A program made the translations under genes and the position numbers. Below, one piece after another: positions 7,873 to 23,505 of a stretch of DNA of 64,000 nt; within the stretch, counting starts at the first letter, position 1; every line of letters starts with the position of its first letter. The DNA lies in NCBI GenBank assembly GCA_930990555.1, contig CAKNPW010000001.1:35007-99006 (forward strand). The letters are read 5' to 3'. Below the pieces are notes generated by a model. That model made no database searches, was not told the DNA's origin, and saw only the letters and a program-made list of their open reading frames with translations. The stretch is from an uncultured Clostridium sp. (lineage in GTDB: Bacteria > Bacillota > Clostridia > TANB77 > CAG-508).

Positions 7873-7910
7873 CGGATTTAAGAACGTTCCGGGATTTGGG
7901 GACGTTCCTT
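7873..7910. repeat. Family-A repeat, copy A1 (tandem ggatttaagaacgttcc and gggatttggggacgttcc)
   Basis: Core GGGATTTGGGGACGTTCC, shared with seven other loci in the window. Confidence 0.7.
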
Positions 7911-9907: not shown

Positions 9908-9960
9908 TAGGGATTTTAAGGAACGTCCCCAAATCCCGAGGGACGTCTCAAATCCCTATA
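9908..9960. repeat. Family-A repeat, copy A2 (double unit, inverted orientation)
   Basis: tagggattttaaggaacgtccccaaatcccgagggacgtctcaaatccctata. Confidence 0.7.
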
Positions 9961-17487: not shown

Positions 17488-18549
17488 TTACCTTTCTTCT
17501 TCACTTTTAATTTGAGTTTTATAATGTACATATCTTCCATATATATTATTTAGTTGTTCATATTCTTCTTGTGGGGCATTTCTTTTTTGCATTAACTTTA
17601 ATATTTCTTGATAATCAGATATAAAAGATGTTTCTCCACTACCTATTACATATTCATAATTTGAAGCAAATCTTTCACTTTGTATAATATCTAAAATTTC
17701 TGGCATTGTTTTTCCTTCTGTTGGTATTTTTTTAGGAGGAATAGCCGAATTTTTACTTCTAATATATAAGCTTATTCTTTCTGGATCCATACCTTCTAAA
17801 CATTCGGTAACAGCTAAATAAGATTCATCATGTCTATGTAAATCTGTTAATTTAGTATCTCCTTTACCATTATATACAAATATTGCAGTTTCATATCTTT
17901 GATGTATAGCTAGAGCACTTACTAAATCCCCGACAGCCATAACATGTAAATCTAATTGGTAACCATGTTCTTCTAATTCTTTTTCATCTACTCCTATTAA
18001 ACCTTGTTGTAATGAAGGTGCCACTTCTATTAAAATATTATATCCTTTTTCCATTGCATAGTTTCTAATATTAGCAGCATGATCATATGAATCTATTCCT
18101 GTTAAAGCCCCAAAATGCGTTCTGTCTTTTTCTCTAATTTCGTCTGCATCAGATCTATACTTTTTATATAAATCTGGATTTATAACAACATATACTTGAT
18201 TTTGTGGATTTATTAATTCTCTTAAACTAGTTTTTCCCGCACCTGTTTGAGATACTAATACAGCTGCAATCGGATTTTTTGAAGGTTCTTGCCTTGCAGA
18301 AAATGTAATAGTCATAGCTTTAAACAAAGTCAACAAATATTCTTTGTCTGTTTGTCTTGTTTCTAGCATTTGTTTCGCTAACGAATTACTAATATTGTCT
18401 GATATGTAAGGATTCACCCTTCTTTTAGCAAATTTTAATATTTCTTGTGGTGTATCTGGTAATTCATTTATAAAGTCTGGATTTAATTCGTGTAATAATT
18501 CATTTAATGTTTCTTCTGAAATCTCTCTTGTTTCATTATAGTCAATCAT
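17488..18549 (-). CDS. Zeta-toxin-like P-loop kinase (copy 2)
   Basis: 353 aa, Walker A VSQTGAGKTS, shared RHDESY motif with its paralog. Preceded by a translationally coupled small helical protein. Confidence 0.5.
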   Translation of the reverse strand: MIDYNETREISEETLNELLHELNPDFINELPDTPQEILKFAKRRVNPYISDNISNSLAKQMLETRQTDKEYLLTLFKAMTITFSARQEPSKNPIAAVLVSQTGAGKTSLRELINPQNQVYVVINPDLYKKYRSDADEIREKDRTHFGALTGIDSYDHAANIRNYAMEKGYNILIEVAPSLQQGLIGVDEKELEEHGYQLDLHVMAVGDLVSALAIHQRYETAIFVYNGKGDTKLTDLHRHDESYLAVTECLEGMDPERISLYIRSKNSAIPPKKIPTEGKTMPEILDIIQSERFASNYEYVIGSGETSFISDYQEILKLMQKRNAPQEEYEQLNNIYGRYVHYKTQIKSEEER

Positions 18550-18758
18550 ATTATTTCTTTCTTCTTTCCTTTTAATACTCTTTTTATAATATTTGAATTA
18601 CCTTTACAAATTTCAACTTTAATTTTTTGTAATACTTCTATTTTTTGCTTTAGTAATTTATTAGCTTTTTGACTCTTATTTACTGCATACTCATTCATAA
18701 CTGTTGCCAGTTCATTTTCTATAATTTCTATAGCAAGCTCTATATATTCTTCCCTCAT
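18546..18758 (-). CDS. Small helical protein, putative epsilon-like antitoxin (copy 2)
   Basis: 70 aa. Overlaps both neighbours by 4 nt (ATGA). Confidence 0.4.
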   Translation of the reverse strand: MREEYIELAIEIIENELATVMNEYAVNKSQKANKLLKQKIEVLQKIKVEICKGNSNIIKRVLKGKKKEII

Positions 18759-19759
18759 TGAATGCTCCTCCTATAAATTTCCTTAAGTTGCTCAAATTGT
18801 TCCTTTGGTGCCTTTCTAGCTTCCATTTGTTTATATACTAATTCATATCTTTCTTTAAATTCTTTTTTTGTATTGTCATTATCTTCATCTCTAACAACTT
18901 TAAGGGTCTCTATTATATCACAAAATCTCTCAGAAGGAAATACTTGTGTTGGATTATATTCATTTGCCAAATTTCCACGTATATATACATTAATACTACT
19001 TATTCTTTTATCATTCATTATTTCTTCAACGTTTGGTATTAATGCTTCATATGATTCATCATGTCTTCCTACAGATGTTAATTTAGCAGTTTTTAATCCA
19101 TGTATTATTTGTAGCTCATATCTTTCATGTACTGATAATAAGCTATTTAACTTACCAACAGCTAAGATATAAACAGAAATTTTATAATTATTTTTTACAA
19201 GTTCTTCTGCATCAACTCCTAATAATCCTTTGTTTTGGGATGGAGCTGATTCTTTTATAATATTATATTTATTTGCTATTGCATATTCGTATATATTATC
19301 CGCATGGTCATACGCATCTGGTCCAGTTAAAAATGGATATAATACTTGATACTCATTTGCAATATCTTTTGCATCATACCTAAAGTGTTTATATTTATCT
19401 GAATCAACAAAAATATAATTTTCGTCTTCTCTTAAAAGTTTTGCAGTTAAATTGCTTTTTCCACTACCTGTTTGTGCTGCAACTATTTTTATTTGAGGAT
19501 TTTCTACTCTCTTTTTATTATAAAAAGTAATTGCCATAACAAAGAAAAAGGTTCTTAAATATTCTTCATCACTTAATAATTTTTCTTTCATTAATTTTTT
19601 GGTAGGTTCATCTACATTTTTAGAAAATTGAACTTCTTTAATTCTAGTTGCATATTTTAATAAATTTTCTGGTTTATCTGGCAACATTTCTATTATTTGG
19701 TTAGGTATTTGCTTTATTATTTTATCGTATACTTCTTTTAAAATTTCTCTTCTTTCCAT
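18755..19759 (-). CDS. Zeta-toxin-like P-loop kinase (copy 1)
   Basis: 334 aa, Walker A AAQTGSGKSN; paralog of 17488-18549. Confidence 0.5.
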   Translation of the reverse strand: MERREILKEVYDKIIKQIPNQIIEMLPDKPENLLKYATRIKEVQFSKNVDEPTKKLMKEKLLSDEEYLRTFFFVMAITFYNKKRVENPQIKIVAAQTGSGKSNLTAKLLREDENYIFVDSDKYKHFRYDAKDIANEYQVLYPFLTGPDAYDHADNIYEYAIANKYNIIKESAPSQNKGLLGVDAEELVKNNYKISVYILAVGKLNSLLSVHERYELQIIHGLKTAKLTSVGRHDESYEALIPNVEEIMNDKRISSINVYIRGNLANEYNPTQVFPSERFCDIIETLKVVRDEDNDNTKKEFKERYELVYKQMEARKAPKEQFEQLKEIYRRSIQ

Positions 19760-19760
19760 A

Positions 19761-19943
19761 TTAAAACTCCTTATTTAATATCTTTTTGACACTTTCTCTA
19801 TTTCCTTTATATGCACTTTCTTGAAGTGCTATTAACTTATTAAGTTTTATTTCGTCTTCTTTAGTTTTTAAATTAAACATAGCATTTGCAATTTCTGCCA
19901 TTATTATCTCTAACGAAACTTCTAGTTCTACATGTTCTTGCAT
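19761..19943 (-). CDS. Small helical protein, putative epsilon-like antitoxin (copy 1)
   Basis: 60 aa. Its stop is 1 nt from the start of the kinase gene. Confidence 0.4.
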   Translation of the reverse strand: MQEHVELEVSLEIIMAEIANAMFNLKTKEDEIKLNKLIALQESAYKGNRESVKKILNKEF

Positions 19944-19999: not shown

Positions 20000-20506
20000 C
20001 TAAATACTAAAAGATGATGCTTTCGGAGGAGTTTTACCTTTTATTACATTGTGATAATAATCATAAGTTAAGACAGGTTTATCACTTATAATTTTTGCCT
20101 CTTCTGCCTCCAATACAAATACAGTATGTGTGCCACAATCTATTTCATTTATTATGTTTGCTTCTATATATGATGAAGTTGCTTTGGTAATTATCGGAAT
20201 ATTATTCTTTCCCATTATATGCTCTGTTCCATCCAATTTATCAAAGTCCTTACTACTTCTAAATCCAAATTTTCCGATTAATAACATATCTGCATCTTGT
20301 GATAACACAGATATATTCACTTTTTTAGCTTGCTTCATTGTTATATTCGTATTGTTCTCTTTATTAACTGTTACTAATAATTTTGGTTTTTTCTCTGCTG
20401 TGGCTTGTACAACAGTATTTACAACACATCCTGCAAAATGCTCTTCATATTTTGTAGTAATAATATATAGTCCATATGATAATTTAAAAAATGCTTCTTT
20501 TTGCAT
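20000..20506 (-). CDS. Flavin reductase-like domain protein (flavoredoxin family)
   Basis: LSYGLYIITT...GCVVNTV N-terminal signature of the Flavin_Reduct fold. Confidence 0.65.
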   Translation of the reverse strand: MQKEAFFKLSYGLYIITTKYEEHFAGCVVNTVVQATAEKKPKLLVTVNKENNTNITMKQAKKVNISVLSQDADMLLIGKFGFRSSKDFDKLDGTEHIMGKNNIPIITKATSSYIEANIINEIDCGTHTVFVLEAEEAKIISDKPVLTYDYYHNVIKGKTPPKASSFSI

Positions 20507-20533: not shown

Positions 20534-20575
20534 GGTTCTCCTCGGGATTTGGGGACGTTCCTCAAAATCCCTATT
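20534..20575. repeat. Family-A repeat, copy A3
   Basis: cgggatttggggacgttcctcaaaatccctat. Confidence 0.7.
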
Positions 20576-20581
20576 ATATTT

Positions 20582-20887
20582 TTATTTAACCCTTGTATAT
20601 TCTTTGACATCTAGCTTTGCAGATAAAATATTTATCTTTTCAGCGTTTTTTATTATTGCTTCCTTATCACTTTTTGCTAAATGTTTTATCTGATACTCTA
20701 ATTTAGAAGCCAGTTTTCTATCATCACTACTCCAAACTGCCTCTAATTTTTTAGCTTTATGCCTTTTGGTATATTTAGCACATTTTTCTCCTTGGGTAAA
20801 ATGTTCATCCATTCTTCTTTCCAAATCAGTAGTAATCCCTGTATAAATTGAATCATCTTTACATCTTAACATATATGTATAATACAT
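20582..20887 (-). CDS. GIY-YIG nuclease family protein (YhbQ/UPF0213-like)
   Basis: MYYTYMLRCKDDSIYTGITTDLERRMDEH matches the GIY-YIG core. The start is 1 nt from the stop of the AAA+ gene. Confidence 0.75.
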   Translation of the reverse strand: MYYTYMLRCKDDSIYTGITTDLERRMDEHFTQGEKCAKYTKRHKAKKLEAVWSSDDRKLASKLEYQIKHLAKSDKEAIIKNAEKINILSAKLDVKEYTRVK

Positions 20888-20888
20888 T

Positions 20889-23345
20889 TTAAAAACCTAT
20901 CCTTCTTGCTTCATTTTTTGCTGTTAATTTTTCTGCATCTATATCATCTTCTGTTATAATCATTAAATTATCGTCATCATCAATATTTTCTACATTTCTA
21001 GAATGTTCAATTAAAATATCTTGATATATTTGATTTATATATCTTGCATTTCCAAAATCTTCAACTTTTTTTGATGTTTCAATTATACTTTCTACTTTTT
21101 TTAGTGCTTCATTTGTAATTTTTAAGTTGTTTTTCTCTACTAATTGTTTAAAAATATCTATTAATTCTTGACTTGTATAATCATCAAACTTTATCGTATA
21201 TCCTATTCTAGATTTTAATCCAGGATTATATTTGATAAATTTTTCCATCTGCTTTTCATATCCTGCGAATATAACTATTAAATTATCTTTTTGATCTTCT
21301 AATACTTTCAATATTGTTGTCATACAATCACTTGCAAAAGAAGCATTAGAACCACTATCTACAATAGAATATGCTTCATCAATAAATAATACTCCACCAA
21401 AAGCTGATTTCAATACATTATATGTCTTACCTGCTGTTTGTCCAACATATTCTGCAATAAGATCTTTTGCTGATACTTCTACAAGTTTATTTTTCTTAGT
21501 GTAACCTAAATTATACAGGATATCACTAAAAAGCCTTGCCACAGTTGTTTTACCTGTACCTGGATTTCCTGTGAATACCATATGAAGATTAAATTTAGAA
21601 ATATCAATATTTGCTCGTTTATTAAATTTTAATAAACTTACTAAATTATTAATTTGTTTTTTTATTTTGCCAAGACCAATCATTTCATTTAATTCTGATA
21701 AAATTTGAGGTAAATCTCTTGTATTATATAGATTAGGTATATCTTCTAACTCTAAAGTTCTATTCTTATTCTCATCAAATGTACTATTTTCATTTAATAT
21801 TATCTTATTAAATAACACTTTAGCATATTCTGTATTTTTAAGTTCACTACTTCCATAGCTTAATTTTATATAATTATATATCTTCTCTTTTATTTCAGCA
21901 GTTAATTGCTCTGTTAAGCTTAATCTTTCTATAACTATATTATAAACCTCATCTATATCTAATTCATCTATGTTTAATTCTATATTAAATAGATTCTCTG
22001 ATAAAATCGGATGTTTATCTAATATGCCTTTTATTACCTCTTTATTTCCATAAATCATTGTTACTATTCTAGAATTATTTTTTAATATTTTTTCTGCTAG
22101 TAAATTTAAAATAATATTTTGATCTTTATCTGATGCATAAATTATATTTTGAAAATCCATAATCCTTATTATTCCATATTTGTATGTAGTTTTTCCAGTA
22201 CTATAATCAACATACATTTTATTTATTAAATTTTTGTCAGATATTATCTCGTTCATTGAATATTCATAATATTTTGTACTTTCTTTTAAATATACAAAAT
22301 ACCACATATATTCACCAATTAACTCTGAAATATTTGTAGCCATCTCCCTATCTTCTGTATACATTACAATATTAATAGGAACAAAAGGTGTCGCTGTTGT
22401 ATAATTATAATTTAAAACATAATTAAATAATCTTTTTATCTTATTTTTAGTTTCTTTATTACAAGATAACTTTTCCACTTTATTTAAATATATTCTGTTA
22501 AAATACTTCCCTCTATTTGTTATCTTATCTTTATTTCTTCTTGACAAATATCTTTCTAGTTGTTTTATAACATCTACTTTTTTTACTTCAATTAGATATG
22601 TATAATATGCAGCCAATTTATATACATATTCATAACTTTGGTCTGTATTATCATCTATATTTTTTTCGAATTCTTCTATATCAAATGCTAGCTCATTATC
22701 ATAATTTCCTAAATAATATTCATGTATTTTATTTATATAATATGTGCTATTTTCCAAATTAATTATGTTTAATACATTAAATTTAGCTTGTTTAGTTACT
22801 TCATTGTATTCTTTTAATTTGATAAATTCATTTTTTAATAATATTTCAACAAACATTAAAGTTACTGTGTCTATTTTATCAAATTTTATATCTATTGAAT
22901 TATATAAAATTGGAGTTTTACCCTCATTTAAAAATATATTTAACAACTTCTTTGCATCTATTACAACTTTGTCTCTTTTTTGTGCACTTAATATTTCATA
23001 CAAAAAATTTCTTACTAAGTATTTTATACAATATTGTAGCCCACATTTTTCACATTTTAGTTTCTTTTCTCCTATTTTGTCTATAAATACATTTCTTGCA
23101 ATGTTTAAATTTATTCTATAGTTACAATTCATTAGAAATTCCAAATAATTATAATCTGATGGAATACAGCTTTTAATAATTGCATATTTTATTTGATTAT
23201 TATTTGCTTCTGCTTCTGTCTGTTGATACATTTCTACTAAATTGAATTTTAAATACATTAACATGATCTTTAAAGTAGGTTTGTCTATGTTTTTATATAA
23301 CTCAAATTCTTTACTATTTGCCAATTTTTCTAAATATTCGTCCAT
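20889..23345 (-). CDS. AAA+ ATPase of the CbbX/SpoVK/EccA-like clade with a ~570-aa unknown N-terminal domain
   Basis: 818 aa. C-terminal FTGNPGTGKTTVARL Walker A, DEAY Walker B, GNAR motif. N-terminus contains CEKCGLQYC. No TM segments. Confidence 0.7.
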   Translation of the reverse strand: MDEYLEKLANSKEFELYKNIDKPTLKIMLMYLKFNLVEMYQQTEAEANNNQIKYAIIKSCIPSDYNYLEFLMNCNYRINLNIARNVFIDKIGEKKLKCEKCGLQYCIKYLVRNFLYEILSAQKRDKVVIDAKKLLNIFLNEGKTPILYNSIDIKFDKIDTVTLMFVEILLKNEFIKLKEYNEVTKQAKFNVLNIINLENSTYYINKIHEYYLGNYDNELAFDIEEFEKNIDDNTDQSYEYVYKLAAYYTYLIEVKKVDVIKQLERYLSRRNKDKITNRGKYFNRIYLNKVEKLSCNKETKNKIKRLFNYVLNYNYTTATPFVPINIVMYTEDREMATNISELIGEYMWYFVYLKESTKYYEYSMNEIISDKNLINKMYVDYSTGKTTYKYGIIRIMDFQNIIYASDKDQNIILNLLAEKILKNNSRIVTMIYGNKEVIKGILDKHPILSENLFNIELNIDELDIDEVYNIVIERLSLTEQLTAEIKEKIYNYIKLSYGSSELKNTEYAKVLFNKIILNENSTFDENKNRTLELEDIPNLYNTRDLPQILSELNEMIGLGKIKKQINNLVSLLKFNKRANIDISKFNLHMVFTGNPGTGKTTVARLFSDILYNLGYTKKNKLVEVSAKDLIAEYVGQTAGKTYNVLKSAFGGVLFIDEAYSIVDSGSNASFASDCMTTILKVLEDQKDNLIVIFAGYEKQMEKFIKYNPGLKSRIGYTIKFDDYTSQELIDIFKQLVEKNNLKITNEALKKVESIIETSKKVEDFGNARYINQIYQDILIEHSRNVENIDDDDNLMIITEDDIDAEKLTAKNEARRIGF

Positions 23346-23505
23346 AAAATCACTCCTTAACTTTAAGATATATTTAAGAATTTATAATGTCAATATTTTT
23401 TTAATTTTTTTTAGTTTTGTATGGACTTTTTTTACGTTTTTGTGTATGATAATATCATATAAAATAGATAATATAAACAAGGGACATTTTAGGAGGGTTA
23501 AACAT

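Follow-up and report, generated by a model that had tools for sequence, protein, structure and literature searches.

The 64-kb window considered here (the whole stretch of 64,000 nucleotides from contig CAKNPW010000001.1 of an uncultured Clostridium sp.) raises the question of what a AAA+ ATPase of 818 amino acids (aa) does when its gene ends a single nucleotide (nt) before that of a small GIY-YIG nuclease, and whether the two gene products work together. An initial annotation, made from the letters alone, had read the pair as a possible anti-phage system. We favor a different reading, to which we give a probability of roughly 60%: the 818-aa protein would be a lineage-specific, chromosomally fixed ATPase of the SpoVK/CbbX/EccA clade that remodels a dedicated client, and the nuclease a housekeeping neighbor that is not obligatory for it. 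What is new here is the architecture, in which an N-terminal domain without a match is followed by a pseudo-AAA+ ring and a CbbX-like motor. The parts of the two genes are as follows.

20889..23345, minus strand: 818-aa AAA+ gene, stop codon 20889-20891 included (open reading frame list and translation)
20582..20887, minus strand: GIY-YIG gene, 101 aa, UPF0213 (YazA/YhbQ/Slx1-type) (Pfam GIY-YIG match and relatives in the PDB)
22401..23345, minus strand: N-terminal mixed alpha/beta domain, residues 1-315 (AlphaFold2; a fold without a match)
23028..23054, minus strand: cysteine knuckle C98-x2-C101-x4-C106, with C60 (23166-23168) a putative Cys4 zinc site
21786..22388, minus strand: D1, degenerate AAA+ module, residues ~320-520 (model, Foldseek and hhalign)
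20931..21701, minus strand: D2, active AAA+ module, residues 549-805 (Pfam, NCBIfam and PDB matches)
21546-21569, minus strand: Walker A of D2, GNPGTGKT, residues 593-600 (motif scan, as for the next five)
21438-21452, minus strand: pore loop, EYVGQ, residues 632-636
21372-21392, minus strand: Walker B, VLFIDEA, residues 652-658
21258-21272, minus strand: IFAGY, residues 692-696
21207-21227, minus strand: NPGLKSR (arginine finger), residues 707-713
21042-21053, minus strand: GNAR (sensor 2), residues 765-768
20892..20903, minus strand: RIGF tail, residues 815-818 (alignment of 18 homologues)

The family to which the ATPase belongs is best judged from D2. Pfam recognizes AAA (PF00004) at residues 589-703 (E = 3.8e-17) and AAA_lid_6 at residues 746-802, and searches against PDB sequences matched D2 to CbbX (E = 4e-51) and EccA1 (E = 1e-44) with every catalytic motif aligned. 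The NPGLKSR and GNAR motifs fall on NPGFRSR and ANAR of CbbX, with N707, R713 and R768 invariant, and F693, A694, G695 and Y696, which form the GY signature in the sensor-1 region, are invariant in 18 homologues. Upstream of Walker A, where a two-helix hairpin is expected in the clade, the segment 547-585 aligns with its CbbX counterpart and has a predicted local distance difference test score (pLDDT) below 50 in the AlphaFold2 model. Walker A, Walker B, the pore-loop aromatic residue, AAA_lid_6 and the GY signature, by which the clade has been defined (PMC11513918), are thus all present. Against NCBIfam, however, the protein scores 226.4 bits for SpoVK (TIGR02881, cutoff 422.95), 213.9 bits for CbbX (TIGR02880, cutoff 459.25) and 194.6 bits for EccA (TIGR03922, cutoff 466.65). 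Since the clade motifs are in place and all three scores are about half their cutoffs, the 818-aa protein is, as judged from its sequence, a member of the SpoVK/CbbX/EccA clade outside its three named families. No second SpoVK-like gene was found within the 64-kb window.

Members of this clade are regarded as specialized chaperones of narrow specificity that recruit their substrates through variable N-terminal domains (PMC11513918), and it is in the region ahead of the motor that the 818-aa protein departs from each of them. CbbX (PDB 3syl, 3syk and 3zuh) is the closest solved relative of D2 and the top Foldseek match (E = 2.6e-15, 29% identity), and the two have in common Walker A and B, a Y-[VI]-G pore loop, AGY, NPGxxSR, (G/A)NAR and AAA_lid_6. 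CbbX, which is an activase for red-type Rubisco and is itself activated by ribulose-1,5-bisphosphate, is nevertheless a single module of ~300 aa without a large N-terminal domain, whereas the 818-aa protein has 545 extra N-terminal residues that comprise the novel domain and the degenerate AAA+ module. SpoVK of Bacillus subtilis belongs to the same clade and gives the best NCBIfam score, and the host lineage carries sporulation genes, but SpoVK has an N-terminal domain of ~40 aa and one AAA+ module in place of the 545 residues that precede the active module here. EccA1 (PDB 9lur) likewise joins a large N-terminal substrate-binding region to a CbbX-like C-terminal AAA+ module; the N terminus of EccA consists of TPR repeats and a beta-helix, in contrast to the cysteine-rich alpha/beta domain and pseudo-AAA+ module of the 818-aa protein. 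The annotated surroundings, which cover ~8-36 kb of the window, contain no genes for Rubisco or for ESX (type VII secretion).

In the AlphaFold2 model of the full 818-aa protein (pLDDT 75), residues ~320-520 show the succession of strands and helices (beta-alpha-beta) typical of an AAA+ core, together with helices of a lid, and in Foldseek comparisons of the full model with the two-ring AAA+ proteins p97, ClpA, NSF, ClpC and Hsp104, 500-600 columns were aligned. A profile alignment of D1 with D2 by hhalign was collinear over 171 columns (E = 6e-4), pairing IRIMDFQ with LFIDEAY, TMIYGNK with VIFAGYE, and the two lid regions with each other. BLASTP between D1 and D2 was not significant (best E = 0.66), so that the assignment of D1 depends on the model, Foldseek and hhalign; D1 also went undetected in Pfam and PDB profile searches. 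Each subunit would thereby hold two consecutive AAA+ folds, as tandem-module AAA+ unfoldases do, joined by a linker that is poorly modeled. At the position of Walker A, D1 reads YTEDRE (residues 329-334), and at that of Walker B, IRIMDFQ (393-399); because Walker A has been replaced, D1 is almost certainly catalytically dead. The tandem arrangement recalls p97, ClpA, ClpC and NSF, in the last of which the catalytically dead D2 ring mainly holds the hexamer together. The 818-aa protein differs from NSF and the other two-ring proteins in that no sequence homology extends beyond the AAA+ fold and in that it is the N-proximal ring that appears dead.

Ahead of D1 lies a domain for which no credible match was seen among known folds. 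Residues 1-318 modeled alone form a compact alpha/beta structure with a pLDDT of 86.4 and a predicted template modeling (TM) score of 0.84. The domain had no match in Pfam and no meaningful Foldseek match in the PDB, the best being I-OnuI meganuclease, which we rejected (E = 0.36, TM score 0.18); against viral models in BFVD the best hit had E = 7.5e-3 at a TM score of 0.12, which is no fold match. Profile searches against PDB sequences returned the DM15 region of LARP1 (E = 0.0015 and 0.011), which was set aside as compositional because DM15 is all-helical and the matched stretch is modeled with strands. The cysteines C60, C98, C101 and C106 are invariant in 18 full-length homologues (46-89% identical) and across three alignments (A1-A3), and they recur as C...CxxC(x4-8)C in the distant members P0251, P0263, P0270 and P0298; we infer that the four form a zinc site. 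The highest mean Kyte-Doolittle hydropathy over 19 residues is 1.25, from which we conclude that the 818-aa protein has no transmembrane segment.

Much of what the initial annotation said of the two proteins has therefore held. The reading frames of 818 and 101 aa with 1 nt between them are as it gave them, by the open reading frame list, the translations and the junction sequence, and its CbbX/SpoVK-like assignment from GNPGTGKTT and GNAR, its CxxC...C knuckle (C98/C101/C106), the lack of transmembrane segments and the YhbQ type of the nuclease all agree with our results. The AAA+ module that it placed in the last ~240 aa is indeed C-terminal, with a span nearer 270 aa (549-818). Its description of the first ~570 aa as unassigned was right for residues 1-315; the profile and structure predictions that it called for turned residues ~320-520 into a degenerate AAA+ fold.

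The C terminus adds a further conserved element. I816, G817 and F818 are invariant in the 18 homologues, including those without a GIY-YIG neighbor, and the RIGF sequence is probably a docking tail for a partner. A [KR]-IGF sequence stands at or near the C terminus in ~12 of 80 other SpoVK-like reading frames from Clostridia, Bacteroidota and Chloroflexi (among them those of loci L013, L017, L030, L056, L057, L070, L083 and L084). In ClpX and ClpC an IGF or VGF tripeptide docks ClpP, and proteasomal ATPases carry C-terminal docking tails; the [KR]-IGF tail resembles both. At one further locus a SpoVK/CbbX-like AAA+ protein is fused to a C-terminal FtsH-type Peptidase_M41 domain (L015, 3-2084, plus strand; Pfam E = 1e-29), and the motif HEIGHA occurs in two other SpoVK/CbbX-like reading frames (L014, 2605-8955, and L069, 5200-8853).

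How widely is this architecture shared? A profile of residues 1-545 run against 1.84 billion representative proteins gave 103 matches, in which many short fragments stand beside full-length proteins of 790-1086 aa. Common to the full-length relatives are the cysteine-bearing N-terminal domain and the dead D1, followed by active SpoVK-like modules, either one or two in number, and they usually end in (K/R)IGF; 18 homologues (46-89% identical) align end to end with the 818-aa protein. Full-length homologues, at 46-92% identity, come from small-genome gut Clostridia, and NCBI names two of the family members "Clostridium sp. CAG:571" and "Candidatus Scatovivens." The family thus appears small and confined to low-GC gut Clostridia. 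Several members lie on contigs of 1.56-1.8 Mb that are probably near-complete small genomes, and some exact family sequences recur on hundreds of contigs, a combination that fits a core gene. The retention of so large a gene in gut Clostridia genomes of ~1.6-1.8 Mb argues for an important cellular role. The 90% sequence cluster of the 818-aa protein (P0344) has 1986 members and a 358-aa representative and is so heterogeneous as to be a clustering artifact; 333-aa members of it, considered as truncated or pseudogene variants, are Na/Ca exchangers.

From homology and architecture we propose that the 818-aa protein assembles as a two-tier hexamer in which the D2 ring would hydrolyze ATP and pull the client through its YVG pore loop. 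The D1 ring, having lost its nucleotide motifs, would serve as a structural scaffold, and the RIGF tail would probably dock a partner. The choice of a dedicated client, or of a few, would fall to the cysteine-rich N-terminal domain, in keeping with chaperones of this clade that are narrow in their choice: the targets are Rubisco for CbbX, MurG for SpoVK and type VII secretion substrates for EccA. If this is true, the 818-aa protein represents an uncharacterized branch of the CbbX/SpoVK/EccA clade in which the first ring is dead and a new domain recognizes the substrate. A recurrent C-terminal IGF tail and FtsH-type peptidase fusions are also added to what is known of the clade, against a published analysis in which no peptidase association was seen and non-degradative remodeling was favored (PMC11513918).

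The nuclease, in turn, looks unexceptional. Pfam GIY-YIG (PF01541) matches the 101-aa protein over residues 1-73 (E = 2.3e-15), and the solved structures that match it best are those of the UPF0213 proteins BH0048 (PDB 1zg2, E = 2.5e-15) and EF2693 (PDB 1ywl, E = 3.6e-8). It consists of a single URI/GIY-YIG domain with the pattern YxY...YTG...RR..EH...E, and the catalytic-type residues of UPF0213 are present: YTYML, IYTGIT, RR (24-25) and LEYQIK are conserved in 17 of the 17 orthologues compared. We detected 1914 homologues. YhbQ and YazA have been placed in the Slx1 family as its bacterial branch (PMC7017083), and this mention as Slx1-family members was all that we found on them in the literature; eukaryotic Slx1 has a zinc-finger domain that the 101-aa protein lacks. 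On these comparisons the 101-aa protein is an ordinary UPF0213 (YazA/YhbQ) orthologue of these bacteria and a predicted nuclease, and the sole difference from the standalone orthologues is that in some lineages its gene comes after that of the ATPase.

Whether the nuclease accompanies the ATPase was addressed by a census of the 13 ATPase-family lineages among the matches listed. The GIY-YIG gene directly follows the ATPase gene in 5 of them: the clade of the window, L102-104, L008, L004/5 (66% identity) and the CAG:571 clade (46%). The gap is 1 nt in four of the five and 53 nt in L004/5. In the other eight, which comprise five more distant family members and three of the 818-aa subfamily (35-56% identity), no GIY-YIG gene lies within 4-6 kb (L094 being a shorter sequence): it is absent from L006/7 (56%), L009 (54%) and L010 (48%), and from L011, L094, L095, L096 and L112. 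Among 76 other SpoVK-like loci, not one showed a UPF0213 gene within 6 kb. Conversely, GIY-YIG orthologues that are 62-66% identical to the copy in the window stand alone after genes for DUF4097 or VTT-domain proteins, with no ATPase within 10 kb. The ATPase-adjacent copy of the CAG:571 clade is 64-66% identical to standalone copies and 57% identical to the copy in the window, and the ATPase-adjacent copies form no distinct subgroup. Adjacency is accordingly a feature of part of one ATPase subfamily, and the nuclease is not an obligatory partner but, most simply, an operon neighbor. We also observed that orthologous VTT-domain proteins (66% identical) are encoded after the ATPase in one locus (L006, 8460-9161) and before a standalone GIY-YIG gene in another (L092, 4270-4989), which hints at an older ATPase/VTT/GIY-YIG neighborhood that was locally reshuffled.

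The genes around the pair, and around other members of the ATPase family, complete this picture. The following lie next to the pair.

20000..20506, minus strand: flavin reductase gene (Pfam Flavin_Reduct, E = 2.4e-22), conserved downstream neighbor
17488-19943, minus strand: two tandem modules of a small reading frame plus Zeta_toxin, toxins of 334 and 353 aa with N-terminal extensions of ~80 residues

The annotated surroundings are mainly housekeeping genes: tyrosyl-tRNA synthetase, GNATs, RsmF, an AP endonuclease, flavin reductase, SmpB and peroxiredoxin, together with YolD and a Y-family polymerase, an aldolase, methionyl-tRNA synthetase, GlmM and a few genes without an assigned function. 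In loci whose ATPases are 66-92% identical, and as far as their sequences extend, SmpB, the small secreted proteins, the AAA+ protein, the GIY-YIG protein and the flavin reductase form a syntenic block, in which the flavin reductase gene follows the GIY-YIG gene in every case. The zeta modules are inserted between the flavin reductase gene and a 253-aa reading frame and vary among strains, being present in the window, L008 and L099-101 and missing from L098 (whose ATPase is 92% identical), L004/5 and L102-104. The accessory element is the zeta modules, not the ATPase/GIY-YIG pair. In L112, a further Zeta_toxin gene is situated 5.5 kb away from the gene of a distant member of the ATPase family. 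No single neighbor is conserved across the ATPase family, although sporulation and DNA-metabolism genes recur. A gene for a Gpr-like spore protease is directly upstream of one family gene (L009, 4707-5639, plus strand); BofA, MiaB-like and Amidase_3 genes precede another (L112, 3039-5971, plus strand) with a gap of 30 nt to the ATPase gene; holA lies 18 nt from a third (L096, 2965-3982, plus strand); and MiaB and MutS genes stand beside a fourth (L001, 8831-13605, plus strand).

These results bear on two explanations in which the nuclease matters more than we allow. In one, the ATPase is dedicated to the UPF0213 nuclease and activates or loads it during DNA repair or recombination, as a functional analogue of Slx4 with Slx1, even where the genes lie apart. 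We think this quite unlikely, and about as unlikely is its specific form, in which binding of the nuclease, or of the nucleic acid on which it acts, would fall to the cysteine-rich N-terminal domain, and activation or loading of the nuclease to the motor, in the manner of Slx4-Slx1. It has points in its favor that weigh against the reading of a remodeler with an incidental neighbor. The 1-nt gap is kept at 46% identity amid different surrounding genes, which is more than is usual for chance neighbors and, alone among the observations on the pairing, argues for some link to the nuclease; the tight coupling seen by the initial annotation thus extends to homologues elsewhere. DNA-metabolism genes are found near family members (MutS in L001, holA in L096, ThyX in L095, and the AP endonuclease and YolD plus Y-family polymerase of the window), and our census is a small sample. 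YhbQ and YazA, moreover, are members of the Slx1 family, and Slx1 itself depends on a partner (PMC7017083), its weak nuclease activity being stimulated ~500-fold by Slx4; the cysteine cluster could itself bind nucleic acid. On the other side, the repair-gene neighbors change from locus to locus, the ATPase-adjacent nucleases are no subfamily of their own, and none of the 76 other SpoVK-like loci pairs with UPF0213. UPF0213 is also far commoner (1914 matches) than the ATPase family (103 representatives), so most UPF0213 proteins must work without the ATPase. Were the partnership real, it would provide a first function for the YhbQ/YazA family and a new AAA+-nuclease machine, and the UPF0213 link in some lineages is in any case a cheap lead to what YhbQ and YazA do. 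In the other explanation, which we hold to be highly improbable, the two genes form an anti-phage or anti-plasmid system whose AAA+ N-terminal domain senses infection and licenses the nuclease. Septu, Gabija and PARIS share the layout of an ATPase gene followed by that of a small nuclease, the 1-nt coupling recurs in a second genomic context, and the initial annotation was correct that the pair adjoins tandem zeta-like toxin modules and a dispersed repeat; the modules are toxin-antitoxin-like and lie 600 bp downstream. The accessory or defense-type neighborhood that it saw there is not supported, since the block is fixed and syntenic amid housekeeping genes and the zeta modules, which vary among strains, were inserted separately from it. 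The scan with PADLOC that it proposed returned weak generic AAA matches for the ATPase (to TRIP13, E = 7e-9, and to IetA, E = 4e-5, the ATPases of the TRIP13 and IetAS systems) and no match for the nuclease, and the N-terminal 545 aa had no match in IMG/VR viral contigs, phage records or plasmids. The co-occurrence that it asked about is partial, the partner being missing in 8 of 13 lineages, and what it had named as grounds for giving up the idea is largely what we found: ATPase homologues that occur without a nuclease, and a nuclease that is the ubiquitous orthologue, standalone elsewhere. Unlike defense systems, then, the pair has no specific model match, no obligate co-occurrence and no variable or mobile location, being core and unseen in mobile-element collections; that it is a mobile or defense module is not supported, and it adds no new defense system.

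Two further explanations concern the ATPase itself and overlap in part with the favored one. The 818-aa protein could be an unfoldase that feeds a peptidase, its RIGF tails fitting the hydrophobic pockets of ClpP in the manner of ClpX with its IGF loops, or of proteasomal ATPases, whose HbYX tails dock into the 20S core. The invariance of the terminal IGF in the family, its recurrence in other SpoVK-like proteins and the intact YVG pore loop speak for this idea, and the M41 fusion and HEIGHA motifs indicate that coupling to proteolysis does occur in the clade. Nonetheless, we give it a small chance of being right: the published analysis of the clade reports no peptidase association (PMC11513918), CbbX and SpoVK work without a protease, and we found no literature linking IGF in CbbX-type proteins to ClpP. 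The RIGF codons in the window also overlap the ribosome-binding site of the next gene, yet the tail is conserved where no such gene follows. If the tail does dock ClpP, the protein would found a new class of Clp-type unfoldase in a clade thought to be independent of proteases. It is likewise unlikely that the 818-aa protein is this lineage's sporulation-stage, SpoVK-type chaperone, acting in the mother cell on an envelope or cortex enzyme, with the nuclease unrelated. SpoVK, which promotes MurG function and reportedly occurs specifically in Bacillota that sporulate (PMC11513918), is the best NCBIfam match (226 bits), and SspH, DUF1540, the Gpr-like protease (L009) and BofA plus Amidase_3 (L112) are encoded near family members. 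That score is nevertheless about half of the SpoVK equivalog cutoff (423 bits), 545 aa replace the short N-terminal domain (~40 aa) of SpoVK, and the sole conserved promoter found is sigma-A-like and not sigma-E- or sigma-K-like. The reading of a dedicated-client remodeler with a neighboring nuclease accordingly remains the one we prefer.

Expression of the pair may be considered from the sequences around and between the genes, in a window that is AT-rich throughout (G+C ~27%). Two features lie at the borders of the pair.

23365..23393, minus strand: candidate sigma-A-type promoter, TTGACA-17 nt-TATCTT, 5′ of the AAA+ gene (10 of 12 in a consensus scan)
20538..20571, minus strand: GC-rich palindrome, one of the copies of a dispersed intergenic repeat, 3′ of the GIY-YIG stop and 5′ of the flavin reductase start

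Both hexamers of the promoter are invariant in 6 orthologous intergenic regions (proteins 66-92% identical). The junction between the two genes reads GGT TTT TAA A ATG, and a Shine-Dalgarno-like purine-rich sequence, AGGATAGG, stands 8 nt 5′ of the GIY-YIG start codon within the last codons of the AAA+ gene. No terminator-like site was found between the AAA+, GIY-YIG and flavin reductase cistrons. In part of the lineage the GIY-YIG gene probably shares an operon with the ATPase gene and is probably translationally coupled to it, and the flavin reductase gene is possibly a third cistron. A search of 16-26 kb of the window against Rfam gave no match.

Farther upstream, at 23400-23470, between a divergent gene for a small secreted protein and the AAA+ promoter, two motifs that contain CATACA (ATCATACACAAAAA and AAGTCCATACAAAA) show almost no variation among the 6 orthologous loci and may be an operator or the promoter of the divergent gene. 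A sporulation-type promoter was considered for these motifs and rejected by eye, their spacing being off relative to sigma-E and sigma-K promoters. The repeat downstream of the GIY-YIG gene was considered as a terminator and likewise rejected, its hairpin being weak (-14.7 kcal/mol, z = -0.74) and lacking a U-tract. Its 18-nt core, GGAACGTCCCCAAATCCC, occurs in 9 copies in the 64-kb window against 0 expected, starting at 7891, 9920, 20544, 26049, 27887, 27914, 36689, 36794 and 45807; this AT-rich genome probably carries it as a REP-like element, and near 9910-9960 a longer unit of the repeat reads as a nested hairpin.

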